Source: Botryllus schlosseri
Lineage: Eukaryota
Assembly: GCA_051294905.1 (NCBI GenBank)
Contig: CM119372.1
Span: 15,254,001-15,318,000 of the forward strand
Direction: 5' to 3'
DNA: 64,000 bases
A program made the translations under genes and the position numbers. The notes below the pieces were generated by a model. That model saw nothing but the letters and a program-made list of their open reading frames with translations. It made no database searches and had not been told where the DNA came from. Of this stretch, positions 11,134 to 43,515 are shown one piece after another (the stretch's first letter is position 1; every line of letters begins with the position of its first letter).

Positions 11134-11149
11134 ATTTGGTTGTATTAAG
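11134..11149 (+). other. 3'-most 16 nt of the spliced leader at the LINE 5' end
   Basis: ATTTGGTTGTATTAAG exactly at the insertion junction. Confidence 0.75.
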
Positions 11150-11210
11150 ATTATATCTTGTAAGATTTATATCTAAAAGTAGCATATACATCATAAGTTA
11201 TAGCTGCAAC

Positions 11211-12083
11211 ATGCCACCCAAGATGCCTCCCAAGAAATCTGAACAAAGTGAAGCTGATGCCATTCGCAAGTTGCTTCCAAGATTCGAAGATGAACTACTT
11301 GCCAGGATAAAAGATGACCTGCCATCAATCATCAATATATGTCTACAGGAACTTCTTAAATCAAGATCGTATGATACCTCCAAATTGCAACATTCTCTTG
11401 ATGCGATAAATGTATCAATCAAAGAACTGAACAATGATATCCAGACAGTAAAACATGCACAGCAATTTCAAAGCGAAAAATTTGATGAATTAATGAACGA
11501 GATTACTCAGGTCCAGAAGATGGCGAAAGCAAATGCTGAAAACATACGAGAGAACACTGAATTAATCAATTCGTACAAAGAATATTCTACACAATTGGAA
11601 GGAAAACTGGAGGAATTTGACAGACTCTCTCGCATGGAAATTCTGGAATTTCACAACATTCCAGAACAGGAAAATGAAAGCACTGATAGCCTCATCAAAG
11701 AATTACTTTCTCTCATGAACATTGATATTTCGGAAAATGACATTGATTACTCATTTAGAAGACGAAAAGCTAAAAATAAAGAAACTGGTCCCATTATTGC
11801 TAAATTTATCTCCCGCAAAACTAGGAACCACATCACGTCTTATTCTCGCTCGAACCTCAAAGCTGCTCACAACTCCATAAACATACCAGATGTATCGAAA
11901 GTTTTTGTTGTGGAAAATCTCACACCAAAAGCACTGAATCTGCTTTTCAAGGCAAAAGACCAAAAAAAGAAATCAGGATATTCCTTTCTCTGGACAAGAA
12001 ATGGCAAAATTCTTGCAAGAAAACATTCCGACGCCAACATACTTGTCATCGAGAATGAACAAGATTTAGTAAAGATGAGTTAA
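11211..12083 (+). CDS. ORF1 of the plus-strand LINE (coiled coil plus RNA-binding domain)
   Basis: First ATG after the SL (MPPKMPPKK); LEFHNIPE, ENLT and WTRNGKILARK motifs. Confidence 0.82.
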   Translation: MPPKMPPKKSEQSEADAIRKLLPRFEDELLARIKDDLPSIINICLQELLKSRSYDTSKLQHSLDAINVSIKELNNDIQTVKHAQQFQSEKFDELMNEITQVQKMAKANAENIRENTELINSYKEYSTQLEGKLEEFDRLSRMEILEFHNIPEQENESTDSLIKELLSLMNIDISENDIDYSFRRRKAKNKETGPIIAKFISRKTRNHITSYSRSNLKAAHNSINIPDVSKVFVVENLTPKALNLLFKAKDQKKKSGYSFLWTRNGKILARKHSDANILVIENEQDLVKMS

Positions 12084-12741
12084 ATTCCTGTTATATGGCT
12101 ATCAGAACTTCTGTCTCTATTATAATGCTTAACCAGCAGTATAATTTGGAAAAAGTGTTTCCTTTCTCACACCTCGGTAATATAGAATTTCATAATTTAT
12201 TTTCCTGTGATAACAGACCCTAACTTCTGACACAAGAAAATCACATAACCTTAAAACTAATAAGATTGATTTTTTGAATGTACAGGACTGTAAATACCAG
12301 GATACAGAACGTGGTCCACCATATATCAAATTCAGAAGTTTTGGCCGAAATGCAATGCTCCTGGGCCATGTAAATATTAGATCAATACAGAAGAATTTTG
12401 ACGAATTACACAATTTTCTTTGCTCCCTTGACTATCCTATTTCAATTCTTGGTATATCTGAGACCAAACTAAAGAATGACCCAATAGACAATATAACTAT
12501 AGATGGCTATACATTTATTCACAGTCCCACTGAATCCAATGCTGGTGGAGTGGGATTTTATATCAATAATAATGTTTCTTACAAACTGTTGAGTGAATAT
12601 GCTCTTCAAGAATGCAATATTGAACAACTCTGGATTGAGTTTGAAGGATCCAACAGTGATTCAAAAAACATAGTCTGCGGTGTGATCTATCGACACCCAA
12701 AAGGCAACTTGAAGAACTTCATAGATAATCTCTCATCTAGT

Positions 12742-12908
12742 TGTACTCGAAGATGTATATATTCAAATAAGTAATAAAACACGTCAACTGAAACAGCAAC
12801 ACACAGACTCCCCCACGTCCACTACACGCTTCCACTTCTTACTACCCCACGACTCCGAGCCGCCACCAAGCGTCTCTTTGTTCGATGGTTTGCATGAAGC
12901 ACATCACA
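12742..12908 (-). repeat. Gypsy 3' LTR
   Basis: Identical to 16773-16939. Confidence 0.95.
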
Positions 12909-13016
12909 TCCCCCCCTGATCTAAAGATCACAAAATTGCAGTTACAGTAATAACCCCAAAGACAGCAAAAAGAAAACGAGGCAAGAACAAAAACCAAGCA
13001 AAGGTAAAATGTCCAC

Positions 13017-16000
13017 TCATACGTCAACAAAGTAATCGGCCCACCATCTGGGCGGGACCCTATCACGAGAAGCGCGTTCAGTATCTTGTCCGTCTTCCGA
13101 TACTCTTTGAACACCCTCAACAGGTGGTTCAGGGTTGTTGTGCTCTCTCTCCTGCCCCACTTCCTCCTGGTTGAAGACCAGGTCTCTTCGACTGACAGCA
13201 TCAGGCGGTTCAGGATTGTCATAATCCCTGACCTCCCCCACCTCATCCCCGTCAAACACCAGTTCCAACATTCTTGAAGGTACCTTACTACTGCCAGCAA
13301 TTTTCCGTCGCTCCCCCACCATGTGCCTAACATCAGCAACATGCCTGTTTCTGCCGTCCACTTCCACCACAGCATCCGCAACTATCCCTGTCACAGTTCC
13401 CTCCCTCCACGGCGTGAAACACTTCGCGTTTCCAGGTTTCACAAAAACCTCCTCTCCCACCACATATGGGTTTGCATCGGTTGATCTATTCATTTCGTTC
13501 ACGGGAGATCCTGGCAACCTTACCGGATAACGGAGGACAGCTTCCGCCGGGACAATTCCTTCTGCGTTCGGAGTGTGATTGTACCAGAACGTCATTTCCT
13601 CCACACTTCTTCCAGACCGAGCAGCCATTCTCCTAATCGTTCTATGGTTTCGTTCAATGATCCCATTTCCAGAGTGTTTATAGCCACAGCTCGTCATATG
13701 CGTAACTCCCCAATCTTTGAGAAACTGAACTGTCTTTTGACATGTGAAACCAGCGCCTTGATCTGTCAGGATCTGAGATGGCGGTCCCCTCTCCAAGAAG
13801 ACCATCTGAAGGTTCCGGATAATCTGTTCGGCTGATTCATTCGCCACCTTTCTCCAGATTGTGAATCGACTCGGCCCGCAGTCGATCATACTCAAGTATG
13901 GCTGGTTACCAACGTAAGTTATATCCAATGCCAAGCGCTCCCACACGTTCTCCACTGACAGCTGGCCATGTTCCCATCTAACAGGGCTGGGGTCGATTTG
14001 TTGGCATATTCTACAATTTCCGACCACGTTTTTCACCAATTCCTGACTCACATCATCCGCGATACATCTCTGTGCGAGGAAAAGTGTTCTCGCGATTCCT
14101 AGGTGATGCTTCTCATGAATCTCGCGCACTTGATTCCTTAATGCGTTTGTTACCCCAACCGCCAGACCCACCCGTTTCAGCCAGGTCTTCGGGACCCTTG
14201 TCAAGGAATCAGCAATATTCTCACCTGAAGGAACCAAACGAATCGTCAACTTTAGAGCATACTCCTCAATGAGCTGCGAGATTATTCCCAACCGTCTCTT
14301 CGTGACCATCTCGCTTATCCCACCCACTTTTGGTCTGTGACTGTCTTCCAGTATAGACCTTACCCAATTGTACACACTGGTCGAGTCCGTAACCACTTCA
14401 ATGTTCTTTATATTCCACTTCAGCACCATGTTTAATCCTTTCACTACTGCATCCAACTCCGCAACATTGATGTGCCCACTGTCACTCTGCTTACGCATCC
14501 ACGCCGCGTCTTCTACAACGGCACCATCTACTCTCAGGCAACACCCCACAGCCAGATTGCTTGCATCACACCACACTTGCGCCCGACCACTAGGAGGCAC
14601 ACGCCAAATCCCACCGACTGGATCTTCTTTCCGCACCTTAGCCATCACATCTTCGGCCAAAGTCTTCACTTGCTCTGGAACAACTGCATCCCATTCAACG
14701 TCGTTGGCAAGTCTTTTGACATAACTACATGCCACTCTTAACCATCCCGCCACAGGATAATGTCCTATTAACTTCCCAAACAGCGAAAACAGTGCTCTCT
14801 TTGTCAGGGATCCCGCCACCACAGGAAGTTCTCCATCTCTCTTCCATTTCCGCATTCCGCCTTCTTCTGCCATGACTCTAAGGCCTAGTACGCGAGCATC
14901 ACATATCGACACTGGCTCTTTTGTCTGCAAACCGTACTTGGCCAGGTGATTCTTCACCTTTCCAACATCGACAACACTCGCATCGACCCATATGTCATCG
15001 ATATAGTGATCTGTTCCTTGAGCCACTTCCTCATCCAGACCTAGAACCGTGCCGATAATCTTTGACATAATTTTTGGAGCTACGTTCAGCCCAAATCCCA
15101 TTCGCGTCATGACGTATCTTTTGCCTTTGTACTCAACAACCTGAAACCGCTGCAGTCGCTCTGACACATGAATCTGCAAATACGCTTTTCTCAGATCAAG
15201 GACATATGCATTTTCACCGGTCGTTCGCCAAGACCTTAGCTTTTCTTGACATACCGCAGTGTTCAGACCGGGGTGACTCGTGACATAAGTGTTGAGTTCT
15301 CGGTAGTCCATCACCGGCCGCACTTTACGTTGCTTATTCGGTTGCTTCACGGCCATGAGCGGGATTAATCCGTCTTGATGCCCATGCTTTGCAGGACAAT
15401 ACTCTTGCAGCCACCCATCTTTGATCCACTGATCAACTTCGCCAGTAAAGGCCTCACGACACTCTGATGGAACTGGGTACATTGCACAGCGGTTTCTTAT
15501 CTCCGGCTCTTCTTCGTTCTCCCACACCCATTCCACAGTCCACTTCTCACCATCGAACACAGCTTTGAAATCGCAGTCAACTACTTCCACTGGCTGAATA
15601 CTCGAGGCAACCTTCGTTGCAACACATGCTTTAATCGCACGAAGTCCAAACTTCGCGTTTAGGTCAGCATAAACCTCAACACCACCAAGTACTTTCACAA
15701 TATCATCCCCCAGCACTATCTTTGAATTGTACACCAGATCCGACGCCACTAAGAACTCGATTTCTACAGCAATACCATCAATCTTCACCTTTGCCCGCAC
15801 CCACCCTGGGCAAGTAGTAAGTGTCCCATTTAACATTTCCACAACTATATAAGGTCCTTTTGGTGTCAGACCCAGTTGTTTACATAAGTCCTCATGAATA
15901 ACTGACCGCTCACAACCAGTGTCCACCAGCCCATTTGTCACCATGCCACAAATCTCCACTGGCACAAATGGTAGCACCTTTCGTCCTCCTAATGCGATGC

Positions 16001-16043
16001 GGAGGGGGCGTCCGGTGCCAACGTCCCTCCCTGGCCTTTTCCC
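13017..16043 (-). CDS. pol: Gypsy Pol (protease, RT, RNase H, integrase), probably expressed by a -1 frameshift
   Basis: LVDTG, DLRKAY, YIDD, CDAS, integrase HHCC and D-D-E (ALDIT, TDQG, IERN); the frame is open back to the slippery site G GGA AAA at 16043-16037. Confidence 0.92.
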   Translation of the reverse strand, partial: GKRPGRDVGTGRPLRIALGGRKVLPFVPVEICGMVTNGLVDTGCERSVIHEDLCKQLGLTPKGPYIVVEMLNGTLTTCPGWVRAKVKIDGIAVEIEFLVASDLVYNSKIVLGDDIVKVLGGVEVYADLNAKFGLRAIKACVATKVASSIQPVEVVDCDFKAVFDGEKWTVEWVWENEEEPEIRNRCAMYPVPSECREAFTGEVDQWIKDGWLQEYCPAKHGHQDGLIPLMAVKQPNKQRKVRPVMDYRELNTYVTSHPGLNTAVCQEKLRSWRTTGENAYVLDLRKAYLQIHVSERLQRFQVVEYKGKRYVMTRMGFGLNVAPKIMSKIIGTVLGLDEEVAQGTDHYIDDIWVDASVVDVGKVKNHLAKYGLQTKEPVSICDARVLGLRVMAEEGGMRKWKRDGELPVVAGSLTKRALFSLFGKLIGHYPVAGWLRVACSYVKRLANDVEWDAVVPEQVKTLAEDVMAKVRKEDPVGGIWRVPPSGRAQVWCDASNLAVGCCLRVDGAVVEDAAWMRKQSDSGHINVAELDAVVKGLNMVLKWNIKNIEVVTDSTSVYNWVRSILEDSHRPKVGGISEMVTKRRLGIISQLIEEYALKLTIRLVPSGENIADSLTRVPKTWLKRVGLAVGVTNALRNQVREIHEKHHLGIARTLFLAQRCIADDVSQELVKNVVGNCRICQQIDPSPVRWEHGQLSVENVWERLALDITYVGNQPYLSMIDCGPSRFTIWRKVANESAEQIIRNLQMVFLERGPPSQILTDQGAGFTCQKTVQFLKDWGVTHMTSCGYKHSGNGIIERNHRTIRRMAARSGRSVEEMTFWYNHTPNAEGIVPAEAVLRYPVRLPGSPVNEMNRSTDANPYVVGEEVFVKPGNAKCFTPWREGTVTGIVADAVVEVDGRNRHVADVRHMVGERRKIAGSSKVPSRMLELVFDGDEVGEVRDYDNPEPPDAVSRRDLVFNQEEVGQEREHNNPEPPVEGVQRVSEDGQDTERASRDRVPPRWWADYFVDV

Positions 16044-16756
16044 GCAGCCGGATTCCCTTTACATTGTCTGGCGATGTGCCCCCATTGTCCACAAGCAAAG
16101 CACTTCCTTGGAGCATTGTCATAGTATCTTCGTGCACCAGTAGAATTTCTACTTTGGCAGTCTCTGGCGATGTGACCCTCTTCCTTACATATGTAGCATG
16201 GGCCGTATACTCTACGCGGAGCCCCAGCAGCACAAAACACACTTTCACCATCTTTTGTGGGCAATAGTACACGTGCCCGAGATGCAATTCGGTCCAACTC
16301 TAATTGCTCTACCTCAGCCATAGACTTAAGCTGTGTCTTGGCATCCGCAGGCAAACCAGCAATGAATGCACACTTAATTATTGGATTAGCTATATCCCCG
16401 TCCAGACCCATCAACATTGCCAACCTCTTCAGATCAGACAGGAACACATCAACCGATTCCCCGACTTGAAGTACACGGTTACGGAATTGTTCATATGCCA
16501 CATAGCAATCCACTCCAAAAGCTGCCAATAACCCCTTTTTAGTCAATTTATAATCCTTCTTCGTCTCCTCAGGCAATTGTTTATACACTGCAAATGCCGG
16601 CCCGTCGAGCAATAAAGGTAGGGTGTTCACGAGAGACGCAGTCGAATTTTGCAGTTTGGCAACCAATTCCAATTTCTCCGTCCATTCTGCAAAGTCGCCT
16701 GACGTTCCATAGTCCACGTAATTCTTGACGATATCCGTTAACTTGACACTTGTCAT
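15989..16756 (-). CDS. gag: Gypsy Gag with two CCHC zinc knuckles
   Basis: ATG 16 nt after the LTR; CYICKEEGHIARDC and CFACGQWGHIARQC. Confidence 0.9.
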   Translation of the reverse strand: MTSVKLTDIVKNYVDYGTSGDFAEWTEKLELVAKLQNSTASLVNTLPLLLDGPAFAVYKQLPEETKKDYKLTKKGLLAAFGVDCYVAYEQFRNRVLQVGESVDVFLSDLKRLAMLMGLDGDIANPIIKCAFIAGLPADAKTQLKSMAEVEQLELDRIASRARVLLPTKDGESVFCAAGAPRRVYGPCYICKEEGHIARDCQSRNSTGARRYYDNAPRKCFACGQWGHIARQCKGNPAAGKGQGGTLAPDAPSASH

Positions 16757-16772
16757 CTTGGCCGCGATAGCT

Positions 16773-16939
16773 TGTACTCGAAGATGTATATATTCAAATA
16801 AGTAATAAAACACGTCAACTGAAACAGCAACACACAGACTCCCCCACGTCCACTACACGCTTCCACTTCTTACTACCCCACGACTCCGAGCCGCCACCAA
16901 GCGTCTCTTTGTTCGATGGTTTGCATGAAGCACATCACA
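16773..16939 (-). repeat. Gypsy 5' LTR
   Basis: Identical to 12742-12908. Confidence 0.95.
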
Positions 16940-19900
16940 CTAGTCTTGACCAATTAACAAACGACGGGAAACAATTCTTATTGATGGGTGACATGAACAT
17001 AGACCTTCTTCGATCATCCCCTACTGTACATGATTACTTAGATATGATTACCAACTATGCCTGTATTCCCATGATAACTAAACCTACTAGAGTGACCAGA
17101 ACATCGTCTACTTTATTGGATCATATGTATACTAACATCGTCGATCTTCGTTTAACGCCTTCTATAATTAATTCAGACCTGACTGATCATTACCCTATAT
17201 TTTGTCTCTTGGAAACCACAACCCGATTTATCAATAGCCGCTACAAGCGTAGGGATTTTGGTAGTATGGACTACGACAGTTTTACGGATGATATCGAGGA
17301 AATATCTGCCAATCTGTACCGAACAGAAATTGATGAAAAAAACTATGATTTAGTTTTTGATAAATTTATGCACGATATATGTGATGTTGTAGATAAACAT
17401 GCCCCATTGCGAATTCAATCAAAACGCGAACGCAGACTCTCTGCAAAGCCATGGCTGTCCAAGGGCATCTTGACATCTATCCGTAATAGGAATAAGCTGC
17501 ATAAGTATTTATTACTCAATTTTTCTGCTAGCAACCACTCTCATTACAAGTCCTATGCAAATCTACTTTCCAAAGTCAAAATAAAAGCCAAGGAACTTTA
17601 TTACAAAAAGCAATTTGCACAACATAGAAAAAATCGCCTGGAAAATGATTGGTGAAATAATAAATCGTGGCACAAATACTTGTATACCAAACAAAATCAT
17701 AGATTCGGAAACTGGTCTAACCAAAACTGATCAACGTGAAATATGTGAAGCGTTCAACCATTTCTTTTCATCAATTGGTTGCAAACTAGCCAACCAAACT
17801 GCTCCATCACAGCGAACTTATGGCCTTTCACCAGAATCTTCCATCTTCATGAAACCTATCACAAGTGCTGAGGTCATAACTGTTCTTGCATCACTAGAAA
17901 ACAAAAAGTCTCAAGGTTATGATATGCTACCAAATTATATTGTTAAATTAATTGGCACTCAACTTAGTGATAGTTTGGTTACTCTCTATAACCACTCATT
18001 AAATCTAGGAATCTTCCCAAACTATCTCAAAATAGCTAGAGTCATTCCCATATTCAAAAATGGTGACAGAGACATTATCTCAAACTACCGGCCAATATCT
18101 ATCCTGTCGCCCTTTGCAATTATCTTTGAAAAACTATTATTTCAAAGACTAAATGATTTCTTATGCCACAAAAAATTGTTAAATCAATGCCAATTCGGAT
18201 TTCGACAGAATCATACTACCTCTCAAGCTGTTATTCATATGACCTCGAAACTATATGATATACTATGTGCGAAGCAAACTGGATGTGGAGTATTTCTCGA
18301 CCTGAAAAAGGCATTTGACACCGTTGATCATACTATCTTAATAAAAAAACTTGAGTATTACGGTGTTCGTGGAATTGCAAAAAAACTTTTCAGTTCCTAC
18401 CTGAGAAATCGATCCCAATTTGTTGAAATCAATTCAATCAAGTCATTGGAACTACCAGTAACTACAGGTGTTCCACAAGGCTCTGTGTTGGGGCCACTAT
18501 TATTCATCATATTTATAAATGATATTGTCTACTCCTCCCCAGGAAATATCACACTCTTTGCAGATGATACTAGTATTGTCACATCTGGATTTGACTATGC
18601 ATCTGCCATTGACAATACTAACTCTGAACTAGCCTCCGTTAGCAATTGGGTGTCTTCGAATAAATTACATATCAATCCCCTCAAAACCAAAATTCTAGTA
18701 TTTGACTCTAAAGGATCTCTCAACAATGCGATCGCAGAATTCAAACTAAAGGACTCTTTGATTAAAACCAGTCAATCTGTCAAGTATCTAGGTATTATTA
18801 TCGATGATAATCTAGTATGGGACCATCACATCAACTACATAGCAAGCAAAATATCTCGTGGCATTGGTGCACTCTATCGCCTGAAGAAGCTGGTTCCAAT
18901 ATCACTTCTCCTACCTGTTTATCATGCGCTCGTCCACTGCCGTCTTACATATGGAATAACAGTGTGGGGCTGCTCTTACAAGAAGCATATCAACAAGCTC
19001 CAGGTATTACAAAACAAAGCCATTAGGATTATATCTAATATACCTGCACGTAGCAGGGTAGGTCCTGAATTTAGAAAATTGGGCATTCTCAAGGTCTCGG
19101 ATTTGTATGAATTTGAAATTGTAAAAATCATGAAACAATATAATGAAAGAACATTACCTGAATATTTCGACAACTTTTTTCAATGCCCCAATTCAATTCA
19201 CCATTATAACACAAGGTTCTCACAGAATCAGTCCCTATTTGTTAAATTGAATTCATCAAGACTGTCAAGAAATTCCCTATCTTATATAGGTGTGAAATTT
19301 TGGAACAATGTACCAACTTTGTACCGTACTCTTCCGTATCATACATTTAAAGCTCGCTATTGCAAATTTATATTATCCAAGTACTAAGAAGAACATATCT
19401 CATGACCACAGTAATGTTGTTTGTTGTTTTGATTCATTTAATATGCTACAATAATATTACCACTGTGTACATGGGTCAAATTGTTATTTTCTGATCACAC
19501 TGTTAACTATGGTAACCGTCCTTCACTAGTGTTGCTGTCTTTTATTTACTTTTGTTTATTTCGTTACTCTTTGCGGTGCTACTTGACTGAGAGAAGAAAT
19601 TGATCCATATTATAATTAATACTGCCAATATGCTTGGGTGACTCCGGCCTAGAAGACTTCGGTCATATCGGGTCTCCCAGTCTATACCGTGCAAATTATA
19701 GTGAGGAAATTTTTTTTTAAATGTATACTATTGGACGTGAATGTTTGTGGACATTGCCTTTACTATATTTCATGGTTGACGAATAAAAGAACTCTCTCTC
19801 TCTCTCTCTCACACCAGCATCAAACAGGTACACTTGACTCTGAACAGTCTGGCTGTAAAGAAATGTTTAGTTAAAGGAAAAAAAAAAAAAATTAAAACAA

Positions 19901-19951
19901 TGGTGGCAAATGATCAATGAAGCAATGTCTGGGCGAGGTAGGCCAACAGTG

Positions 19952-22880
19952 TTAGTGTAACGACAAGAGGTGATCAAGTAGGGCTTTTTTGAATCTATTA
20001 TAAGGCAATTCACGGATATGTGGTGGTAATGCATTCCAGATGATAGGTCCCGAGTAGTCGATAGATCTCTTAGTTAGGTTGCTATTGGGTGGGGGTAAGT
20101 AGATGTTTCCTTTAGACGAGGATCTCGTGTGCTGGGAATGGACATGTTTAGCAGGTATGAAAAAGTCATCGAACACAGTAGGCAGACTATTGGAAAATAT
20201 TTGTTAACAACTTTTGATACTTCGAAGCGATATAGTTCATCAACTCGCAAAATTCGATGCTTACGGTAGTAAGGCGATAAATTGGTACGTAAAGGTACAG
20301 ATGAGATCAGCCGTATCGCACGGTTTTGCAGGGTTCGAATTCTGCACAAAAATGTTGTGCATGCATTTCCCCATACTACGATTTCATATTGCAGATGAGA
20401 GTGGAAAAGGGAGAAGTAGATGGTTCGTAGCACTGATCTGGAAACCAAAGATTGAAGACGGGTCATTATTCCCACACACCGAGCTAGTTTTGATATTGTG
20501 CATTCAATATGCTGCTTCCAAGACAATTTGGAATCAATGGTGACGCCGAGATATTTTGCTGAGTCACATATTGAGATTTGTTTATGATTGACATTCACAG
20601 TGAAATTATGACTGGCATTATTTAAAACGAGCATCTCGGTCTTATCTGCATTCAAACTTAGTTTGTTTGCTTGGAGCCATCTCGACACTTTTGGGAGTTC
20701 CATATTCACAGATGCATGCAAACCATCGACAGTGTTGGAGGTTATGAAGAGGTGAGTATCATCAGCAAATAGCGTTGTGCGGAATAAAGATGCATTAACA
20801 ATGTCGTTAATATAAATGAGGAAAAAAGTCGGCCCAAGGACTGAGCCTTGTGGCACTCCACAAGTTATATCTCTGGTAGTCGTTCTTAATGACCCCAGTT
20901 CAACAAATTGTTTGCGGTTTGTCAGGTAGCTTTCAAGTAGAGTTGCTGCAATACCCCTGATTCCATAGTGTTCTAGCTTGTATCTTAAGATTCTGTGGTT
21001 AACTGTGTCGAAAGCTTTGCGGAGATCGATAAAAATGCTGCAGCCACTTTCTTTTTGCTTGATGGTTTTGTAAAAGTCCGTTACAATTGATAGTATTGCA
21101 TGGTTGGTGTTGTGGTTGGATCTGAATCCATGCTGAGTCGGAGACAGTACTGCATTCAATTCAAAAAAGTTCTTTAGTCGGCAGTCAATCAGTTTCTCAA
21201 AAACCGTGGCAAGATTTGGCAAAACAGATATTGGTCGGTAGTTAGAAATTAGCTTTTTACAGCCTTTCTTAAACACTGGCATTACTCTTGCAGTTTTCAG
21301 TGCATCTGGGAAAATGCCTAGACGTATCGACTCATTAAAGAAAATGCATATAACATCACCAATAATATTAAAGACTAGCTTCAGAAAGTGAGTTGGGATG
21401 AGATCGGGTCCTACTGCTTTGTTACTTTTCATTTCAGATAATACGATCGCAACTTCTCCTTTACTTGTCGGCTTAAGAAAAATGGATTTCTGAGGGCCAG
21501 GACTCAAGTACGAGAGAAAGTCATCGGAGGAGTCTGGTATTGAAGCTGCAAGATCCGGACCAATGTTGCAAAAATACTGATTAAACTTTTCTGCTACTGC
21601 AAGCTGGTCTTTGATGATGATGCCATTCTCGAGTAGCTCGATGTCATCAGCACTCTTGGGAGCATTACCTTTAGTTAGGTTGATAATTTCTCCAATGGTT
21701 TTCCATGTGTTCTTGGGATCTTTGGAGCACTCTTCAAATCTTTTTTGGAAGTATGCTTTTTTGGCATCTTCTTTCATATGCGTCACTTGGTTTGCATATT
21801 TTTTGTACACTTTTTTGCCTTCGACGGTGCCTTGCAGATAGTAGTGCTTATGCATCCAATCCCTTGTTTTGATCGCAACTAGTATGTCATGACCAATCCA
21901 GGGTTTCGATTTCAAGCGCCTTGCATTGCGGTTGACTTTCCTAATTGAGAAAGATGTGTCGAGGGCTGCCCGCAGTTCCTCAATAAATTTTTCAAAATGG
22001 CGGTTGTAGTTGTCAATTGTGAGTGGAGGAATTTTGTACTTGTTGAAGGTATTGCTGACAATTTCAATATACCCCTCAATACCGCGTGGGTTTAAGGGCG
22101 TTCGAGATTCAAATTCTTTAGCACAATGTCGCAGGGCCAATTTCATGTGGCAGATGATGGGATAGTGATCAGTCATACTGTGTTGGAGCACAAAAGGGGA
22201 CAGGTGATATTGATGAGTGTTGCAGTAAAAGTGATCTAGTAGAGTTTTGGATTGATCAGCTATTCTTGTGGGTTCAGTGATTATCTGAGCTATTCCATAA
22301 GAATCAAGCATTTCACGGTACCTTGTGTTAAAGTTGGTGGTCTTCAGCAAATCAGTATTTATGTCTCCCATAATAAATATTTGTTCGTGAGCTGCCGTTA
22401 GCTTTTCCCGAATATTTGAGAATTCGTCAAGAAAAGTCTCTTGCTTTGTTCCTGGGTGTTTGTAGATGACTGCCACTGTGAGAGCTTTTTGTACGTGTAC
22501 TCTGACAAATATATATTCTACGCCTTCGGTTTCAAATTTTACGTCGGGCATCATGTCATATCTCAGACCTTCGTTGATGTATAGTCCAACACCTCCAGCG
22601 TTCGTTTTAGATGGCGACTGTAAAAAGTTGAAACCTGTCAGGTTAACATTAGTCGTTGGATGTTCTTTCAACTTGGTCTCAGAGATTCCGATGATGGTTG
22701 GTGAGCAATTGAACATTTTAAACAGGGGGGGGGGGGGGGGGAATTTCATCTAGATGAGCTTGGAGGGATCTTGTGTTTAAGTGTGCAAGTAAAATTCCTT
22801 GAGATGATGGGATATCACTACTATTCGTTGAATTGATAGATCTGCAGTTGCTCACGTTGAAAAAGTTTTGAGTCATTTTT
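19952..22880 (-). pseudogene. ORF2 of the minus-strand LINE (APE plus RT), frameshifted at the G-run near 22730 and near 20180
   Basis: GISETK, MGDIN, TDHYPI, NYRPIS, DLRKAFDTV, GVPQGSVLGP and FADD motifs in the 891-aa ORF. Confidence 0.9.
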
Positions 22881-22988
22881 TAGTGTGGGTTGCGTTTGCA
22901 GTGTGAGAGCAGTATAGCAGTTTCTATTTGAGTTTATCAAGGTCATCCTTTGACTCAATGTGGATTCTGGGTGCGCCATCATTCTTTT

Positions 22989-23756
22989 TCATGTAGATAT
23001 TTCCATTTGCAGTCCGGAGGTATTTGAAGCTTTTTTTTGTTTCGCAGCTCGCGCTTCAAAGAAAACATCTCTTCTGTAATTTGTTAGATTTTCGTTTAGG
23101 AAGAGTTGTTTCATTCCATCTACACCAAAGTCCTTGATATCCCTTTTGGCCTTTTTCACTTTGAGCAATTCTTTTTTTGGTTTCTCTGAAGAGAATTTGT
23201 CTATAACCGGTCCTGTTTTGTCCAAGTTATTTTTGAAGCGCACTCTATAACACTGCACAATCTGTGGCGCAGTAATCTCAGCTTTCAAGGCGTTAGCTAT
23301 TTTCATGATAGTTTCAGGCAGATTTTCTTTTTCGGAGTGGGGAACACCATGAAATTCCAGGTTGTTGTTTCGAGATTGCTGCTCCAGGTTGTCGTTGGTG
23401 CGTTCTAGGTCAGAGATTTTTTTGTTCAGGAATCTCATAGTTGACTCAATTTTTTCGTGTTCCTTGAGCATGGATTCTTGTGAGGCGATTTCTAGATTTT
23501 TTTTGGTGTCCTCAAATTCTGCATTCATGAATTCCATGCCAGTCTTGCAAGATTCTATCTCTTTTCGCAGTTCTTCTACGGCAGAACCAGATTTTTTGAT
23601 ATCTTCAGCTGTAGTCTGCAGTTCTGAGATGATGTTGCGCAGTTCCTTGTTTTCTTCCTTTAACACTTTGACTTCAGCGAGCGTATCTTCCAGTTTTCTG
23701 TCCATCTTTTTCAGTCTCAGCAAGATGACATCTTCGTTTGTTCCGGGCTTTGTCAT
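22989..23756 (-). CDS. ORF1 of the minus-strand LINE (coiled coil plus RNA-binding domain), frameshifted near the C-terminus
   Basis: LEQQSRNNNLEFHGVP and FLNENLT motifs; homologous to ORF 11211-12083. Confidence 0.8.
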   Translation of the reverse strand: MTKPGTNEDVILLRLKKMDRKLEDTLAEVKVLKEENKELRNIISELQTTAEDIKKSGSAVEELRKEIESCKTGMEFMNAEFEDTKKNLEIASQESMLKEHEKIESTMRFLNKKISDLERTNDNLEQQSRNNNLEFHGVPHSEKENLPETIMKIANALKAEITAPQIVQCYRVRFKNNLDKTGPVIDKFSSEKPKKELLKVKKAKRDIKDFGVDGMKQLFLNENLTNYRRDVFFEARAAKQKKASNTSGLQMEIST

Positions 23757-23809
23757 TTTGTTTCTTGGATGGGTATATAGCCTAGATTATAGCCTAGATT
23801 ACTTTAAAT

Positions 23810-23833
23810 CTTAATACAACCAAATACTCCAAT
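23810..23833 (-). other. Genomic copy of the 24-nt spliced leader at the LINE 5' end
   Basis: Reverse complement reads ATTGGAGTATTTGGTTGTATTAAG, identical to 43176-43199; matches my recollection of the Halocynthia/Botryllus SL. Confidence 0.8.
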
Positions 23834-25653
23834 CAACAACAGCGATAACATTTACTGCAAACTCATTGCACAGGAAGACAAACAGCGCAAAACAAAATCT
23901 CTGAGCTATCGTCACGACAAGTACGCCGGAGAAGTCAACATGGAAACAGCTAACCTGTACACTGCAGAAAACACTGTTGCTAAACCCACAACAATAGCAA
24001 AAGCAACACGAGTCCGATACAAAAATGCAACGCTCAAAATGAGAGAAACGATATGGGAGTCGATGCCTCTTCATGGACAGCACAAGAAGTTAACTTCACA
24101 GCCCCATGTAGACGAGCTTTCATGGACCTGGCTATCCAGCTCTGGCCTGAAACCGGCAAGCGAAGGATTCATTTTCGCAGCACAAGACCAATCGCTTCCT
24201 ACAAAATCCTATCGCAAAAGAATTCTGAAGCAAAACACGACGACAAATGCAGAATGTGCCACAACCAAAATGAAACTGTAGCACATCTCATGTCCGGCTG
24301 TGGTGCACTTGCAGCTACGGAATACCCACGGAGACACAATAGGATTGGTCTCCACATTCATCTTGAATTATGCAACAATTTTAACATCACCACTTCGACA
24401 AAAAATTGGTACGATTACAGCCCAGCACCAGTGACAGAAAACGAACAAGTAAAAATTCTGTGGGATGTACCAGTTATAACTGACCACGAAATCAGAAGTA
24501 ACCGCCCGGATATAATCGTCAAACTAAAAAAGAAAAGAGAATGCTTATTCATTGAACTGGCTGTCCCAGCTGATCACAACCTACTGCAAAAAGAATCAGA
24601 AAAACACTCCAAATACGCAGACCTCAAAATGGAATGTGAGAAAATGTGGCGGTGCAAAATAAACATTGTACCTATAGTCATTGGCGCTACAGGGGTCGTG
24701 AGCAAAAAACTCATGAGACATATCCAACAAATTCCGGGTAACGTTCGATTCGACATGATCCAAAAGATCACATTATTGGGCACTGTGCACATTCTTCGGA
24801 AGGCCTTGAATGCACCACTGGACTAAAATTACACTTGTGAATCAAAGCATTATTTCTGTAATTTCGATTCTTCATCTTCAATCATCTCTACCTCTGCTCT
24901 GTAACCCTTGCCAATTCTTCATCTGCTGCAATTCTGTAATCTGACTTCTCCATGTATTGCATAGGAATATCAATTTGAATGTATTACTGAAATTTTAAAA
25001 ATTTACTCCAATCTCGCCATTTTCCTTTGGGGGCAGGTTGCTCCCCGGATTATGTGTGTATTTACCAGTTTTACTGTGAATAAAGAATATAATAATAATA
25101 CGGTGTAAAAGGATCGAGGAGAGTAGGTTTATGATAATCTTGAGTCATGACACCTCCAATCCATCGTCGGTAGTGAGGTCACGATTTTCGACATCAGCTG
25201 TCGACTATATCACGTCACATAATTGCCAATGCTGAAGGTTGCGAAAACGGCAGGCAATCATCAACAGTCTATCGCATATATTAGAGCTCGCTACCTTGTG
25301 ATACGTTGCTACAACTTCAGTCTCGCGAGTATATGAGAACAGCAAATAGACTCACGATTCTGTGTGTTCTACTCAATCTAACTTGAGAATTCATAACAGT
25401 TTAATAACGGTAAAGCAGCTTTTAGACTACAACCAAAATTTGAGTTTTGTGGCGTCTCTCGACCCGAGCCTCATTCATGAAAGGAATTCATTTTTAATAT
25501 TACAGTTGTATGCTACGATTTTGCGGGCATTTTCATCGAAACTTTTTTTTCGACAGGGCACGCGGTCTCCAAATCGCTACAACACTCGAAAATCTATTGA
25601 TCATCCCCGAAATGTTATCTCATGTTGCAGAGTCCGTTCTAGCGTGTGTTACA

Positions 25654-28251: not shown

Positions 28252-28412
28252 CAGGGCTGTGGAGTCGGTCAATTTTACCACCGACTCCAACTCCGACTAC
28301 GACCTCACAGATTTTCAATGGACCGACTCCGACTCCTAAGTCTGTAAGCGTATCGACTCCGACTCCGGCTCCGACTCCGACGTCTTTAAACCTATATACC
28401 GACTCCGACTCC
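28252..28412. mobile_element. End of a hAT-type MITE with (CCGACT)n subterminal repeats
   Basis: CAGGGCTGTGGAGTCGG followed by many CCGACTCC motifs; partner end not found. Confidence 0.55.
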
Positions 28413-31630: not shown

Positions 31631-32242
31631 CTATTCTTTCAATTCAACAAGTCTAGTTAACGAATCGATTTTCAAGCGGCCGACACAGTTTTTAACACGA
31701 GTGAGTTGATATTTCTTCCCGGGTACGAGCGAGGCTTTGTTCCATTGACCCAAAACCACCTCGCCAGTATCATCCTTCAATGTAAAACTGTATAATTTCA
31801 ACTCCTTTCCGGCACCAGAATTGACCGTCTTCTCCTCTCGAGAAACACAAGTAGCGGCGATCGAGACGTATTCATCTTTATTTCCGTATACCGATTCACA
31901 GGTCAATAATGGGTATTCTTCAGTCGTATGTCTCGATTTTCCATGCAGAGTTACTGACGAAGCCCGTCCCAGTAATACAGCAGGTTTTCCAGTAAACTTG
32001 TCAATTTGGACCCAACCGGATTTGACCATGAGTTTTTTTCGTTTGGAGAATGCTTTCTCAATGACCCCGAACAATTCACGATTGAAACACGTGAAAGATA
32101 TCTCTTCGTTATTGCCGTCGATGAATATACCTTTGAGATATTGGCTAACGCCACCTCTTTTGGGTGATGAGACGAATTTGACGCCGACGTGAAAATTTGA
32201 AGTTGCTCCGACTTGCATAGTGTTGACGCTGTTCGATGTCAT
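31631..32242 (-). CDS. Tandem OB-fold, RPA-like ssDNA-binding protein, left-arm copy
   Basis: Intact 203-aa ORF; FIDGNNEEISFTCF and FTLKDDTGEVVLGQW resemble the LxDxxG-(I/V)xxxx(F/W) strands of RPA70 OB domains. Confidence 0.65.
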   Translation of the reverse strand: MTSNSVNTMQVGATSNFHVGVKFVSSPKRGGVSQYLKGIFIDGNNEEISFTCFNRELFGVIEKAFSKRKKLMVKSGWVQIDKFTGKPAVLLGRASSVTLHGKSRHTTEEYPLLTCESVYGNKDEYVSIAATCVSREEKTVNSGAGKELKLYSFTLKDDTGEVVLGQWNKASLVPGKKYQLTRVKNCVGRLKIDSLTRLVELKE

Positions 32243-38200: not shown

Positions 38201-41200
38201 TCAATGTTATGCTAAAATAACCAGAAGCATGGAATCAATAGGACGAAATGATATCATCTTCCCTGTTTGCGCATTAAATCAAGTAGCTATACTTGCGTGA
38301 GGCTATTAACTGTGAAACAAAACGGCAACTTTGATCGAAAGTACGAATAACGCTGACTCATAATCTTATAATTAAAAAAAATAGGTATATAGCCTTGCTC
38401 TCCTGATACAGTTAATATCACAATCTGAACAAATAGAATTTACTACTTAAGGTAAAACATCTGAATATATGGGATATAAGGACATCTTCTAATCAAATCA
38501 GCATCTAGGAAAATTTCAACAGTACAAAGACATTGATGCTCATTTTCATATGAAGGGGAGAGAAAACAACAACGATGTACCTATAACCATAACATGAATA
38601 TTCACCCGCTTCCCTGACACCTCTTCTATACAAAAATAAATCCTAAATACTCAACGCTAATTCAATATCGACGCTAAATCTTGTCCGTAAAATTAAAATG
38701 AGCCTTCGGAAATGCGAGGCAGTCGGATTTAATGACGAATATTTCACACGGAGCATATTGCAATAAAAATACAATCTTGAAATCTATCTTTATCATATGA
38801 CCAATAATGCAAAGGTCACTACATTGATTTTTAGTAGTGTGCATACGTATGTGATCGATAGTTTTGAACACCAAAATTATGAAAGAACAAGCTAATATCA
38901 CGAATTTGGGAAGCCTATATGGAATATGGTTTGACTCTTGCTTCACCTGACCTATTGTCAGAAGTTGACGATCTTTCGTAAAGCAAGCGGCATCAATTAT
39001 GGCATTCATTTTGCGTTAATGAAGTATAAATGCTTGTGTTTTATGGTTGGGATGATTAAGTTTGCGTTGGATAGTATAATATACTGATATAAGCGTGAAA
39101 TATACCACGAAATAAAATCATGACTTGCTAAACACTCGCTCACTCATAATTTTGCCTGTGTCTAAAAAAGTACTGATGATCTCTGCTAAAGACGTTTGCA
39201 AATACAATCATTTGCGGCACATAATGACAGTAGGTCTGGAATTTTATGATTTATGGTATCAGCCTGCTGCCGACACCTTTTGCTATTATAGCTGTTCCTT
39301 ACATATAAACTGAAAATGGCATCTTCGCCGTCTGATTTTGGCATCTGATTCCGATAATCCTTTTGGGCATTGCTTGCAATGGCATAATATGACGCATTGC
39401 AGCGTATCGGTTGGGATCGCCACACTGGGGGATTCGATTTAGCCTGTGGCAAACTACTGGGTTCTATGCTAGGTTTATAGTTTTATAGGACAGATGCCAT
39501 GTCACCATGCAGTCGCAAGTGATCTCAAGCATCACGACTGTTACTAAGATTAATGCGTGCATTGCGGAAATAAAATGAATACGTTAATCCGTGATACTTA
39601 TATTCTTCGGCATTGCCGGTCATCGCAATGACTTGTGATTAGGGCTGGTCCATGTCAAGTATTTGAGTGATTCGATTCGGAATGGAGTATATATCAGGCT
39701 TCTGGTATAATCTGTGCATGTTCCCGCAAATAAGTTCATGATTATAACACACCGGACACTCAAACTTTGGCACACTGATATTAAAGGTCAATTGGTTTTT
39801 TTCACTTAGTCTAAAGTTCTAAAACATTAGCTGTGCTTTTGCGTATAGCTTGCTTCGTCGTGTCCTAATTTAGGCATTTTGGCACAATAATTCAACGCCA
39901 AGTATTTGCGACAACGAGGTCCGAGCCGCATAGACAACTCCCAGGGGTGTCAAACTCATATTACGTTGCGGGCCGGATAATTGTTGAACAATAACGACTT
40001 TGCGCAAGACGCCCTATCTAGAAAAAGTACTTGAAAGTTAGGAATGCGCTAGTCATATGTATGTGACGATTCCTACATCAAGGCGCAACTATTCTAGTTT
40101 GTGTACGTTGAAATTTGATGAGCTACGAATTTATTGATCCGCTTTAATGTGTGAAAGCTACGACTATCAAAGTCGTACCGTTCTCAAGCCTCCCTTATGT
40201 GCCAAGATGCTAACATAAATATAATGCGGTGGACTGTTCACAATTCAATAGCGTGGAAACGCCGGTGTGAGTTCGTGCCTTTCCAAAACGAGCCGCATTG
40301 TCACTGAGTTTCAAATGCATAAATCCGCGCTTCATGGATTGTAGCTATACAAAGTAAAAGGTCGTAAATTTAAGCTCTCAACTATAGGCACTGCAAATCT
40401 TATATTTCAGAGAATGCCTACACTGCCCCTCCAAATTGTTAAGGTAAGGAATTATAGTAACCGAAAAAATAGAGGTGACTTCTGTAGTCATGAGGCTGCC
40501 CATATGAGCCGTTAGTAAGAAGAATTGCCGTTGCGTAAGCAACAGATATAATCACCCTAAATAACTCTCAATAGAATTAAAAACAAAAATTCTTATATAC
40601 AATAGAAAAATACACACATCAGTTTTTGCGAAATTGATGTGTCGAATATTGAGTCCCAGGGTTCACGCTTTCGTTTCATGAGATCGATTGCGTCAACGCT
40701 AAATTAACAGAACGTGTTCGAACTTTATAATTGCCGATACTTACTATCGTGTCGAGTTAACAAAAATGCCGCCATTTTGTATTTCGAATTTGCGCATGGG
40801 TTAATGAATGAACAGTCGAATATGCTTTGTGGATTTGGCCGTTGTGTTGATAGCACTTTGTGCTTATCTGGAATTGTCGTATGCATGTTAGTAGTTAGCT
40901 ATACCATCAGGTTGCTTTACCGAAAATGGCGCCACCATTTTTCTATGTATGCGAACTTTTGCAGTGAGCTGAAGTATATGTAATATATGTGTGTATGCAT
41001 ATTGTATATCCATGCCATGTATGGTGCCCACATGAATTGTACATTCAATTGTAATATCCAATGACTACCAATGCAGACATCATGAATGTGTCCCCTAGTG
41101 TTGGCTAATTTCTGGCTCTACCAATGTAAAGCCACCAGCAGTCCAGCACTCTCGAAACACAGCCCAAAACGAAGCATCCAGTATCAGACTATATCCACAA

Positions 41201-41838
41201 AACAGTATATTGACGATTGATTGCGGGAGGTTCTAAAGTCTTTCGGCATTGAAGGGTGATGTTCGCATGTCCCCCTGGAAGCTCTTGACCTTATAATGAT
41301 TGGATCGGCTGCTTGCCACAGTTGCAAAGTATACAGAAATAAAGCAGTGCAATAAAATGGGATTGACTGCTAGCCGAAGTTGCAAAGTATACAGAAATGG
41401 AGAAGCCAAATGAAATGTGCTGGAATAGCTCCATGAAGTCGATGAACTAAAGATGAAAAGAGCCAAGAGTATAGAGATATTGCATTCGGAATCTCTGCCT
41501 ACGACGAACCCTCAACAAACGCCGCCTTCTGTTGGAATGCCCGATCCCCGAATCGACACGAAAGTACTTGATGATGTAAAGTACTCAACAAGGGGTCGGT
41601 TTCTGGACTGCTTTCGGTTCTATACCTGCAGCTGGAAGACTGGAGAACTCTTATAATACACGAGTCTGCAAGTTGGTCAACTTGAACTCTGAGTGTATTT
41701 TTTTGTAACATCTATTGGCATGTTTCTTGTATATTGCATATGCTTGTGTGTCGAGGCAGGAAAGGCCTTCACATTTATATGTGTAAACTAACCTTGGAGT
41801 ATTGAAAATGTTTATTAATCATGTATGATGATGTATAG

Positions 41839-43070
41839 CAGGGGTTCTCAACTTCGCTCGTATAACGGGCCGCATTGTAACAACAAAAGACGCCGCGGGC
41901 CGCATAACATTATCGCCACGTATTTGTGGGCTACTATTAAATTTAGGCTACTGTAGCCTATTTACCATTCTTATACGGAAATTTAGTACATTTTAATGCA
42001 TTCTAAAGCAATAATGGACAGCGTTCGTAAGTTTGCAGTTGCTGTTTTTTTTGTGACAATATCTATCTTTCAGCCGCGCAAGTAAATCCCTTCATGGAGC
42101 GTGCGCATAGCATTCGTTGCAAGTCGGTATATGCACCTTCAAACCTTTCCACCATATAGTCAAACCTCTGTTTCAATGCGTGAGCGAGCAAGTATAATAT
42201 TACGTTCACATTACGTTATTCGTTACAGAGGCCATTATCACTTTGAGCTCTCAGTGATACGAGAAGATGTCTGGTGTGCGGTCTCATTTCTGAGCAAACC
42301 AATCAACCCATCTCATTTTTCCATTACTGGACCCCAACACAGAGTTACAGAAGTCAGCTTTCTCCAGTTGATGTTTTTCACTGGTCCCATTCGCACGTTT
42401 GCCCCGTCAGCATTTACTCTGGAAATATGTCCATGTCCAATCTGATAAAACGCACCTGGATAATTAGCTATGCAATGTGTGTGAAGTCGGTGGATTCGTC
42501 CAACCCTAGAGGTTGAAGTAGTCTACGTGGCAACGTGTTTCAGAACACGCGATAAAACATCGACTGAGACTGCGCTGTTACTCTTCTGGTGACGATTGAA
42601 TCAGACAACTGTAGCTTCGAAATTTGTCAGGTGATGTTGTGTTGGCCTTGCTGCTAAGTTGCAGAAACAGCGAATATTCGCACAGTACGTTGGAAGTTTT
42701 ATAGCAGTCACACCTTCTCTCGCAGATTCTTGGGTTTAGCGATATTCTAAGAATTTTGAACAATGCGTCGGTAACGTCGTCGGCAATTTTAACAATGCCT
42801 CGAAATATGGATTGCTGGGCTTGACACCTAGCTAGCAACGTTTTACCTAAGATCAGGCGATATGTATAACTCCAGAAGAAACTATCGTGCTATCATTTTA
42901 AGCTTCTACGCTTCATTACAACAACTCTTCTTCGACAAATATGACACATCGGTCTTCCATAACAATACTGTGCCAGAAGCAATTGGGTTCATATTGGAAG
43001 ATGTCGCGGGCCGCAAAATAATCGTCGGCGGGCCGCATGCGGCCCGCGGGCCGCGGGTTGAGAACCCCTG
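41839..43070. mobile_element. hAT-type MITE
   Basis: TIR CAGGGGTTCTCAAC / GTTGAGAACCCCTG; 8-bp TSD ATGTATAG; GCGGGCCGC subterminal motifs. Confidence 0.9.
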
Positions 43071-43175
43071 ATGTATAGGTTAAACCGTGCTTTGTGTTAT
43101 AATTGATGAATGATGTGTATGCCAATTTAACCAAGCTTTGCATAGGGTTACCTCATTTCCGTCTGCATGATAATT

Positions 43176-43199
43176 ATTGGAGTATTTGGTTGTATTAAG
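43176..43199 (+). other. Complete 24-nt spliced-leader copy heading an LTR-type retroelement
   Basis: ATTGGAGTATTTGGTTGTATTAAG; not followed by GT, so it is not an SL RNA gene. Confidence 0.8.
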
Positions 43200-43485: not shown

Positions 43486-43515
43486 AACTTCCGGTGTTCA
43501 GACGTTGACCAATCG

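Follow-up and report, generated by a model that had tools for sequence, protein, structure and literature searches.

The host spliced leader at the 5' ends of two LINE families and inside a ~10-kb gag-pol element of Botryllus schlosseri: likely traces of trans-splicing before reverse transcription

In a 64,000-nt stretch of the genome of the ascidian Botryllus schlosseri (GenBank assembly GCA_051294905.1, contig CM119372.1, positions 15,254,001 to 15,318,000 of the forward strand; hereafter the window, C2:15254001-15318000), the spliced leader (SL) of the host was found in three retroelements. It forms the first bases of two long interspersed nuclear elements (LINEs), here called M and P, and lies inside a third element that carries gag- and pol-like genes. 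The way in which SL is distributed over the genomic copies of these families makes it likely that retroelement RNAs are trans-spliced to the host SL before reverse transcription, SL thereby being written into the new DNA copies. Judged from sequence, SL carriage extends to at least two LINE families and a large gag-pol superfamily. An initial annotation of the window had proposed that all three elements transpose through SL-trans-spliced RNAs; this stands for the two LINEs, and has to be modified for the third element, which is not begun by SL.

The 24-mer ATTGGAGTATTTGGTTGTATTAAG is present as an exact match at 23810-23833 (minus strand) and 43176-43199 (plus strand) of the window, and its last 16 nt at 11134-11149 (plus strand), in agreement with the three sites originally reported. 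ATT follows directly 3' of SL at all three. With up to three mismatches allowed, two full copies were found in the window against none expected (0/100 shuffles), and the 14-nt 3' part of SL gave three matches against 0.03 expected. In the assembly searched (495.5 Mb in 219 contigs) there are 236 exact copies, 111 on the plus and 125 on the minus strand, and the reversed-pattern control gave none. The assignment of the 24-mer to Halocynthia and Botryllus, made in the initial annotation, is borne out by a literature text match to pieces of it in PMC3795323. In the parts of that source consulted, Table 1 prints GATTGGAGTATTTGGTTGTATTAAG as 'Chordata 1', and supplement files 1 and 2 give the 24-mer as the SL of Botryllus schlosseri, Halocynthia roretzi and Polyandrocarpa misakiensis; the supplement further lists a 22-nt SL for Boltenia villosa and one with a single mismatch for Herdmania curvata. 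On these pages, the window 24-mer is the SL of stolidobranch ascidians, printed for five species (PMC3795323).

The boundaries of the two LINEs in the window were defined with contigs from three public runs. These empty sites are paralogous contigs and not evidence of insertion polymorphism, the flanks being themselves repeats. Where contigs arrive at position 23832 from the right, the sequence before it is a 30-mer located at 10948-10977, part of an uninterrupted older LINE. Because these older-LINE contigs join 10948-10977 to 23832, LINE M spans the interval from SL at 23833 to the (CT)n tract at 10985; it is flanked by the target duplication CAACA/ATCAACA, inside the older LINE. Likewise, contigs reaching 11134 from the left continue as CCAGCATCAAACAGGTA, which is window 19814-19830, and since they read straight from 11134 into 19814, LINE P is an insertion of 11134-19813, with a possible CACA target duplication. 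The claim that SL lies exactly at the 5' junction of the minus-strand LINE, next to its target-site duplication, and truncated at the junction of the plus-strand LINE, is thus upheld by contigs and duplication alike. The distance from SL to the ATG of the first open reading frame (ORF1), put at ~55-60 nt in the initial annotation, is 53 nt in LINE M and 61 nt in the window copy of LINE P, close to that estimate; it is 46 nt in other P copies, which are missing a private 15-nt stretch (ATTATATCTTGTAAG) that follows the truncated SL of the window copy. Both LINEs fit the type with an apurinic/apyrimidinic (AP) endonuclease, having an ORF1, a reverse transcriptase domain (RVT_1), no long terminal repeats (LTRs) and a simple-repeat tail, with Exo_endo_phos in ORF2 of M. 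They are not unrelated to each other, as had been assumed: their proteins are 42% (ORF2) and 27% (ORF1) identical, and M and P are distant relatives. Their 5' untranslated regions (UTRs) have only the first five bases in common.

The association of SL with the LINE 5' end was then followed through the two families. For family M, 43 genomic matches to the 510 nt after SL were obtained, of which the 30 best were examined with their flanks and 13 weaker, mostly partial matches were left out of the junction counts. For family P, 11 match rows represented 10 copies, and the flanks of the nine copies outside the window were examined. SL was present at the start of the element, next to mutually unrelated flanks, in 28 of the 30 best M copies (of 43), and it was found in 9 of the 10 P copies. 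The fraction of SL-headed copies, whose determination had been suggested as a check, is accordingly in favour of the claim for both LINE families, as is the lack of any common sequence upstream of SL; families extending beyond it had been named as an argument against. The two M copies without SL both have a different 5' part, and the P copy without it is an older one. Both M subfamilies, at 96-100% and ~80% identity to the window copy, carry SL. The canonical SL abuts family M with its full 24 nt in seven copies, with 22-23 nt in nine, with 12-18 nt in five and as 21 nt with one mismatch in one, while variant SLs (see below) were found as variant 2 in two copies, variant 1 in one and a degenerate, variant-1-like form in one. 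In the remaining cases a full SL is followed by the 7-nt spacer TCTGCAG, which ends in AG (L061; genomic loci are designated L), or the joint with SL is shifted 8 nt into the element, to just behind its own AAAG. Among the leaders of family P, one is full, several are truncated, one is degenerate, one has a 7-nt spacer and two copies have double SLs; in copy L079 a 12-nt SL is followed by 7 nt. The SLs of LINE copies are nibbled from the 5' side by 1-12 nt, and in many of them only the first one to three bases are lost or replaced, a pattern that may reflect a cap-adjacent RNA end. The sequence evidence thus supports transposition of LINEs M and P from RNAs with SL at the very 5' end.

It was also observed that the first base after SL (e.g. 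window 23809, 11150 and 43200) is much more variable than its neighbours. In 27 copies of family M it is A in 19, C in three, G in four and T in one, the next ~20 nt being nearly invariant; in family P it is A or G, and in the third element G, A or C.

Two further routes by which SL could have come to lie at the LINE 5' end bear on these junctions. In chimeras of U6 and L1, a reverse transcriptase has jumped from one template to another, and a corresponding jump at the RNA 5' end, onto SL RNA or another SL-capped mRNA, could be considered here. Such a jump might account for the out-of-register SL duplications that lack an AG, which are taken up below, but it should carry over 3' sequence of the donor RNA and produce variable junctions. 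In LINEs M and P, the SL exon is found alone, with no SL-RNA intron, and the junction between SL and element is at the same base in 25 of the 28 SL-bearing M copies. Since the content is exon-only and the junction constant, splicing fits the data and template switching does not, and we regard the jump as very improbable. Alternatively, the elements could insert site-specifically beside the SL of SL RNA genes and use the gene's promoter. SLACS, CZAR, CRE and NeSL-1 are LINEs of this kind, located in SL RNA genes, with a restriction-like endonuclease and able to use the promoter of the gene. The promoter-like block that always precedes SL in the third element, and the GT that often follows it, could be read in this way. 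The flanks of 28 M and nine P copies, however, resemble neither one another nor the SL-RNA-like genes described below, the LINE endonuclease is of the AP type and not restriction-like, and the third element is mobile together with its upstream 3 kb, while nothing resembling an SL-RNA intron follows its right end. On account of the different flanks and the endonuclease type, identity of the LINEs with the SLACS/CZAR/CRE/NeSL type was rejected, and insertion into SL RNA genes is in our estimate extremely unlikely as a source of the SL.

Two variants of SL were found in the genome. Variant 1 (...GTATTTGAAG), which has 2 nt inserted relative to the canonical SL, has 16 genomic copies and variant 2 (...GTTATAAG) has 39. 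Nine copies of each are located in a tandem array with a period of 5,808 bp at the end of contig C8 (28362634-28420649), whose unit contains two divergent SL-RNA-like genes, one for each variant, ~550 bp apart. The variant-1 gene, as seen in one unit (L086, C8:28362520-28363320), consists of a 26-nt exon followed by GTACGT, the perfect hairpin GGCTGAGTGCGCTCAGCC and TTTTTTGA, a layout which by its sequence is that of an SL RNA gene; the variant-2 gene in L086 has a similar layout. No Rfam match was obtained at E<=1 for these array genes (L086). A comparison of the 24-mer with SL RNA genes had likewise been suggested in the initial annotation; SL-RNA-like genes were found for the variants, and none for the canonical SL in a search for it next to a splice-donor consensus (see below).

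Both variants occur at the head of LINE copies. M copy L050 and P copy L072 start with variant 1, and M copies L044 and L060 with variant 2, which is also the inner SL of P copy L071. The bodies of the variant-SL copies are 97-100% identical to those of canonical-SL copies. Because near-identical copies bear different, gene-matched SL variants, the leader has been replaced in register from the SL RNA pool, as would be expected if the ...AAG of the encoded SL itself serves as acceptor. The proposal that the AG of an integrated SL acts as the next trans-splice acceptor is in this respect in line with the observed renewal of SL at the same junction and the swapping of variants, although the use of this acceptor would still be a deduction from the copies. 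These data also bear on the simplest competing view, in which SL is a piece of inherited 5' UTR, acquired once or alike by descent, with an internal promoter at its first base and no current trans-splicing. The relatedness of P and M and the common junction of most LINE copies are compatible with such inheritance. It does not account for three SL types on M copies that are 96-98% identical, matching separate SL-RNA-like genes and in one case differing by a 2-nt insertion, nor for an exact leader in front of P and M 5' UTRs that cannot be aligned and proteins that are 27-42% identical, nor for the new SL found behind the AG of a foreign repeat in L071 (see below). We consider simple inheritance quite unlikely.

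Locus L071 probably records a second round of splicing. It reads, in order, an unrelated flank, SL, 37 nt, a truncated variant-2 SL and LINE P. The 37-nt spacer belongs to a repeat, one 31-mer of it having 3,517 genomic hits, and in six of six intact copies of this repeat the 37 nt are preceded by ...CAAAAAAG, which ends in AG, with the repeat extending beyond. With 3,517 hits, a single source locus of the spacer is not traceable; the repeat itself (L080-L085) is ~300 nt long. In the simplest history, a P copy with a nibbled SL resided in such a repeat, was transcribed from upstream, received a new SL behind the AG and was reverse transcribed. L071 would thus be a fossil of the host read-through and trans-splicing that the initial annotation had postulated. 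Two SLs each are present in L071, L072 and L055, and in L072 SL is followed by 9 nt and then by a 16-nt SL. Taken together, the genomic fossils of the LINEs point to repeated trans-splicing before reverse transcription and not to simple inheritance.

The third element had been described as an LTR-type element beginning with SL, 268 nt upstream of its primer-binding site (PBS). The distance is a fair one, but neither LTRs nor integrase were found, and similarity between copies runs for 3 kb upstream of SL as well as downstream, so that the element does not begin with it. It is a unit of ~10.1 kb. Its right-end 25-mer occurs 49 times and its left-end 29-mer 21 times in the genome; for 17 of these 21 left ends, spread over many contigs, a right end follows at a distance of 9.97-10.32 kb. 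Right-end-to-left-end junctions, as in tandem or circular forms, numbered 0. From SL it is 3.0 kb to the left end and 7.0-7.3 kb to the right end, the latter distance being reduced to 4.3-4.6 kb in deleted forms. Neither the window nor five 20-kb third-element copies showed LTRs, inverted terminal repeats or split direct repeats, and the self-comparison of copies gave a duplicated promoter block as the sole repeat.

After SL, the full copy (L037+L038) encodes a gag-like ORF, a zinc-knuckle ORF and a 1,160-aa pol in which RVT_1 and RNase H are followed by a Tpt1/KptA domain at the C-terminus, together with a weak protease match (E=0.1). Neither an integrase (rve) nor a tyrosine recombinase domain was found in this pol with Pfam. 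The Tpt1/KptA assignment (L038:3145-6624) is given by Pfam (E=2e-9) and PDB 7kw8 (E=4e-6), with the GH(S/T), H.T and R..HLS motifs aligned; a remnant of the Tpt1-bearing pol is retained in the window at 46979-47722. The same RT-RNaseH-Tpt1 architecture (RT, reverse transcriptase) was recovered in one cluster only (P0002, 215 members) among 5.8 billion proteins, and the next protein matches of this pol are Ty3/gypsy pols with integrase. The identity of the element at 43176 as an LTR retrotransposon was rejected on the lack of LTRs and integrase, its assignment to DIRS/Ngaro on the lack of a tyrosine recombinase and of inverted or split direct repeats, and an integration pattern like that of pararetroviruses on the fixed ends (17/21) and the 0 tandem junctions.

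Upstream of SL, full copies have a second promoter block at 1.4 kb, followed by ~40 nt, TTTCTTTCAG and 11 nt to the ATG of a 157-aa ORF; from its sequence, this downstream context is that of an ordinary outron and acceptor. An intron-less ORF for a ubiquitin-conjugating enzyme (UQ_con, E=5e-47) is present in the upstream 3-kb module at L037:7090-7608 and occurs in full copies B05 and B18. Aligned members all show the succession promoter-like block, SL, ~45 variable nt, CTGGACC-N4-6-GGTCAYTG, CTTCAATCA, CACTATAAA and a TGG... motif. The TGG... motifs have the form of a tRNA 3' end, in two versions, at the same place in different sub-families, ~225-270 nt after SL. No tRNA genes, matching or other, were found in the window or in 60 genomic loci. 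Rfam gave no match in the window at gathering thresholds, and none at E<=1 in six SL loci.

SL marks a point of exchange in this element. Among 30 sampled exact-SL loci, 20 belong to the third-element superfamily, in which SL is exact while the neighbouring sequence is 65-85% identical between sub-families. The family distance from SL to the right end is kept at 22 of the first 100 canonical SL sites listed, and also at one of eight variant-1 sites (seven dispersed and one array) and two of 30 dispersed variant-2 sites. In L089, variant 2 is found between the same upstream block and body as in canonical-SL copy L019. Modules moreover break at SL: L003 and L014 are 97% identical upstream and different downstream, L011 and L020 are alike upstream, with the downstream part of L011 shared with L019, and identity between the window copy and L011 is 98.6% upstream of SL but only 84% downstream. 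SL here presumably sits where the gag-pol RNA should begin, at the equivalent of the U3/R boundary of LTR elements.

Several observations weigh against trans-splicing as the common source of these leaders. Duplications of the last 11 or 14 nt of SL in L006, L014 and L055 are not preceded by AG. (Tandem duplications of the last 11 or 14 nt, or of the first 9 nt, are found in L006, L014, L055 and L048, and the same 11-nt duplication in two different families.) The kinship of P and M (42% in ORF2) would allow SL to have been a single acquisition in their ancestor, and an internal promoter starting exactly at base 1 of SL is possible for most copies. No gene for the canonical SL RNA was located: the SL stands before the splice-donor consensus GTRNGT (GT, purine, any base, GT) at only seven dispersed sites, two of which were examined and are mobile-element copies. 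RNA reads on 10900-24100 amounted to 17 low-complexity reads from one raw RNA run, three other runs having given DNA-like contigs. The third element is mobilized as a 10.1-kb unit between fixed ends, and an RNA starting at SL cannot alone explain the 3 kb upstream. Furthermore, GT follows SL in several of its sub-families (12 of 19 aligned loci, scored by eye), and the first 11 nt after SL in L002 are one base off the intron start of the variant-1 gene, a pattern which hints at an SL-RNA-gene origin of the module. The observation that ATT and not a GT donor follows SL, correct for all three window sites, consequently does not extend to the relatives of the third element; its ATT is private to the window copy, the nearest relatives (L005, L018 and L009) having GTTTTAG.

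These features of the third element could be combined into an SL-RNA-like gene of its own, with promoter, SL exon, GT donor, an Sm-like site (AGCTTTGG or AATTTTGG) and a hairpin, in which case its RNA would be natively SL-headed and might even donate leaders to mRNAs of the host. The GT and the L002 intron start just described would fit, as would GTACG after SL in L002 and L088, as in the variant-1 gene, the conserved CTGGACC-N4-GGTC ~50 nt downstream of SL and the failure to find canonical SL RNA genes elsewhere. Conversely, a host variant has been swapped into an otherwise identical context (L089 versus L019), sub-families D2 and D4 have no GT, the layout differs from that of the array genes, where the hairpin precedes the U-tract, and no Rfam family was matched. 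An SL-RNA-like gene within the element is to our mind unlikely, and the trans-splicing of retroelement RNAs to the host SL is retained as the probable explanation.

The mechanism that we envisage on this basis starts with the joining of the host SL to the retroelement RNA, which would occur by trans-splicing and be followed by reverse transcription into DNA. In the LINE families, SL would become the first bases of the insertion, its ...UUAAG end being placed where a 3' splice site is needed. A read-through transcript from upstream could then be trans-spliced again at the AG of SL, yielding a capped, full-length 5' end. Such a promoter-less LINE cycle is a hypothesis, well motivated by the copies analysed here, and the re-splicing step is what we infer from them. 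In the third element, SL would mark the 5' end of the gag-pol RNA, and reverse transcription would put it between the 3-kb upstream module, which ends in the promoter-like block, and the leader. The strong-stop DNA of a freshly trans-spliced RNA would carry SL, and the upstream module could be added in a transfer for which SL supplies the homology. With R-like homology of this kind, the exact SL, the SL swapping and the module shuffling at SL would all be explained. The complete scheme, in which SL is a self-renewing trans-splice acceptor for promoter-less LINEs as well as an R-like strand-transfer homology in an undescribed ~10-kb element, is offered tentatively, and we would sooner doubt it than rely on it.

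The features identified in the window are collected in Table 1. The order of nesting, from the outside inwards, is older LINE, M, P and the gypsy-type LTR element. Contigs of other P copies skip the last of these (12737-16939), in which no SL was found with up to three mismatches. The older LINE has left remnants of zf-RVT-type ORFs at 9344-10288 and 24053-24826, and one of its 30-mers is found twice, at 9326-9355 and 10948-10977, 1.6 kb apart. The insertion that interrupts the promoter-like block of the third element ends in a GC-rich motif (GCGGCCCGCGGGCCGCGGGTTGAGAACCCCTG-like) at 43020-43068, which is also present in the 5' flanks of L043, L046, L047 and L070 and is probably part of a common short repeat.

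Table 1. Features of the two LINEs and the third element in the window (positions are those of the 64,000-nt stretch)
Feature	Position	Strand	Basis
LINE M, full-length, SL at 5' end, broken by nested LINE P	10985..23833	-	junctions, contigs of other copies
(CT)n tail of LINE M	10985-11005	-	sequence
Complete 24-nt SL, first bases of LINE M	23810..23833	-	exact match
LINE M ORF1, 255 aa, coiled-coil	22989..23756	-	ORF
LINE M ORF2, 891 aa, AP-type endonuclease and reverse transcriptase	20074..22749	-	Pfam Exo_endo_phos E=8e-5, RVT_1 E=1.8e-33
LINE P, in 3' part of LINE M, (CT)n tail, hosts LTR element	11134..19813	+	contigs of other copies
5'-truncated SL (last 15-16 nt), first bases of LINE P insertion	11134..11149	+	match
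LINE P ORF1, 290 aa	11211..12083	+	Pfam Baculo_FP_2nd E=9e-16
LINE P ORF2 part, reverse transcriptase	17615..19387	+	RVT_1 E=2.9e-34
Nested Ty3/gypsy-type LTR retrotransposon, zinc-knuckle gag, protease-RT-RNaseH-integrase	12737..16939	-	Pfam; contig joints
Third element, upstream module type U2	40426..41838	+	98.6% identical to module upstream of SL in L011; left limit not reached
~1.23-kb insertion in promoter-like block, ~10 nt of block duplicated on both sides	41839..43068	.	B05 9525-9611 = 41755-41838; B05 9602 onward = 43069 onward
Promoter-like block, CCAAT motif, TAAT-type motif ~26-30 nt before the AG of SL	43069..43175	+	alignment of 21 loci
Complete SL, internal, presumed 5' end of gag-pol RNA	43176..43199	+	exact match
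Body of internally deleted, non-autonomous RT-RNaseH-Tpt1 element copy	43200..47722	+	without parts matching B05 12089-13086 and 14367-16163
Conserved leader motif CTGGACC-N4-GGTCATTG	in 43200..47722	+	alignment
PBS-like TGGTGGCCAGTACGGGG	43468-43484	+	motif
Gag-like ORF of window copy	43791-45620	+	ORF
Family right end ...CACTAGTTCCCAA	ends 47722	+	family match

SL appears from the sampled loci to be carried by several unclassified repeat families as well. The first ORFs of L001/L029, L007, L021/L030 and L024 gave no Pfam family and no similarity to the proteins of M, P or the third element, and L028 has no long ORF. L024, L025 and L087 constitute another repeat family with SL at the start (5'-truncated in L087) and unrelated flanks; here SL is followed by a perfect donor, GTAAG(C/T)ATCG, and the family may derive from unspliced SL RNA. 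In L021, L022 and L030 (C1:40.61 Mb and C2:25.73 Mb), tandem units of 1.8-1.9 kb contain an internal exact SL, with AAATACTCC, the reverse complement of part of SL, 30 nt after it and a 467-aa ORF of no known family.

The closest parallel is provided by dinoflagellates, in which Slamovits and Keeling reportedly described, in 2008, retrogenes with DNA-encoded relict SLs. SL relics in retroposed dinoflagellate genes are also mentioned in the portions of PMC6050394, PMC5585692 and PMC12014239 that were available. In dinoflagellates, and probably in Botryllus too, a trans-spliced RNA has been reverse transcribed and has brought SL into the genome, stacked or truncated leaders are left by repeated cycles, and the encoded leader can be spliced again. 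In dinoflagellates host genes are retroposed in trans, whereas in Botryllus, a chordate, autonomous LINEs and a gag-pol element are concerned and the SL 5' end is family-wide; the Botryllus leader is also mostly replaced in register, in contrast to the stacked leader of dinoflagellates. For animals, the only hint found is a remark in the accessible text of PMC5832876 that retrotransposons of Schistosoma mansoni 'might bear the SL', based on six gene models and with assembly error as an alternative. In that text, the remark comes without the junctions, family counts, variant swapping or transduced flank that are all given here for Botryllus. In the searched literature, mostly non-subscription, neither tunicate LINEs headed by SL nor retroelements with RT-Tpt1 were found described, and the sections of PMC12460157 and 10.1101/2022.08.27.505549 that were covered contain nothing on SL-headed elements.

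As in SLACS, CZAR, CRE and NeSL-1, a LINE is physically linked to SL sequence in Botryllus, but here SL belongs to the inserted RNA copy, the flanks are unrelated and the endonuclease is of the AP type. The third element resembles Ty3/gypsy elements in its RT-RNaseH, which groups with them, its zinc-knuckle gag and its TGG... primer-binding-like site. Caulimoviridae use tRNA priming. According to the part of PMC11363490 consulted, caulimoviruses have neither integrase nor LTRs, and the third element is like them in both respects. It is unlike either group in its fixed ends, the Tpt1/KptA C-terminus, the ORF for an E2 ubiquitin conjugase and the internal SL, and it suggests a type of retroelement whose enzymes, RT-RNaseH-Tpt1 and no integrase, are an unusual combination.

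In each generation, a LINE has to regenerate a 5' end that is full-length and translatable, a problem for which internal promoters and ribozymes are the solutions known. An SL that is encoded in the DNA and spliced again would, if true, represent a third solution to 5'-end renewal, and the activity of these transposons would be coupled to read-through from host transcription and to a chordate's SL machinery. In addition, SL acts as a natural tag, which marks the RNA 5' end of each copy, records the SL RNA variant used and reveals transduced flanks, so that the history of a family may be read from the genome alone.

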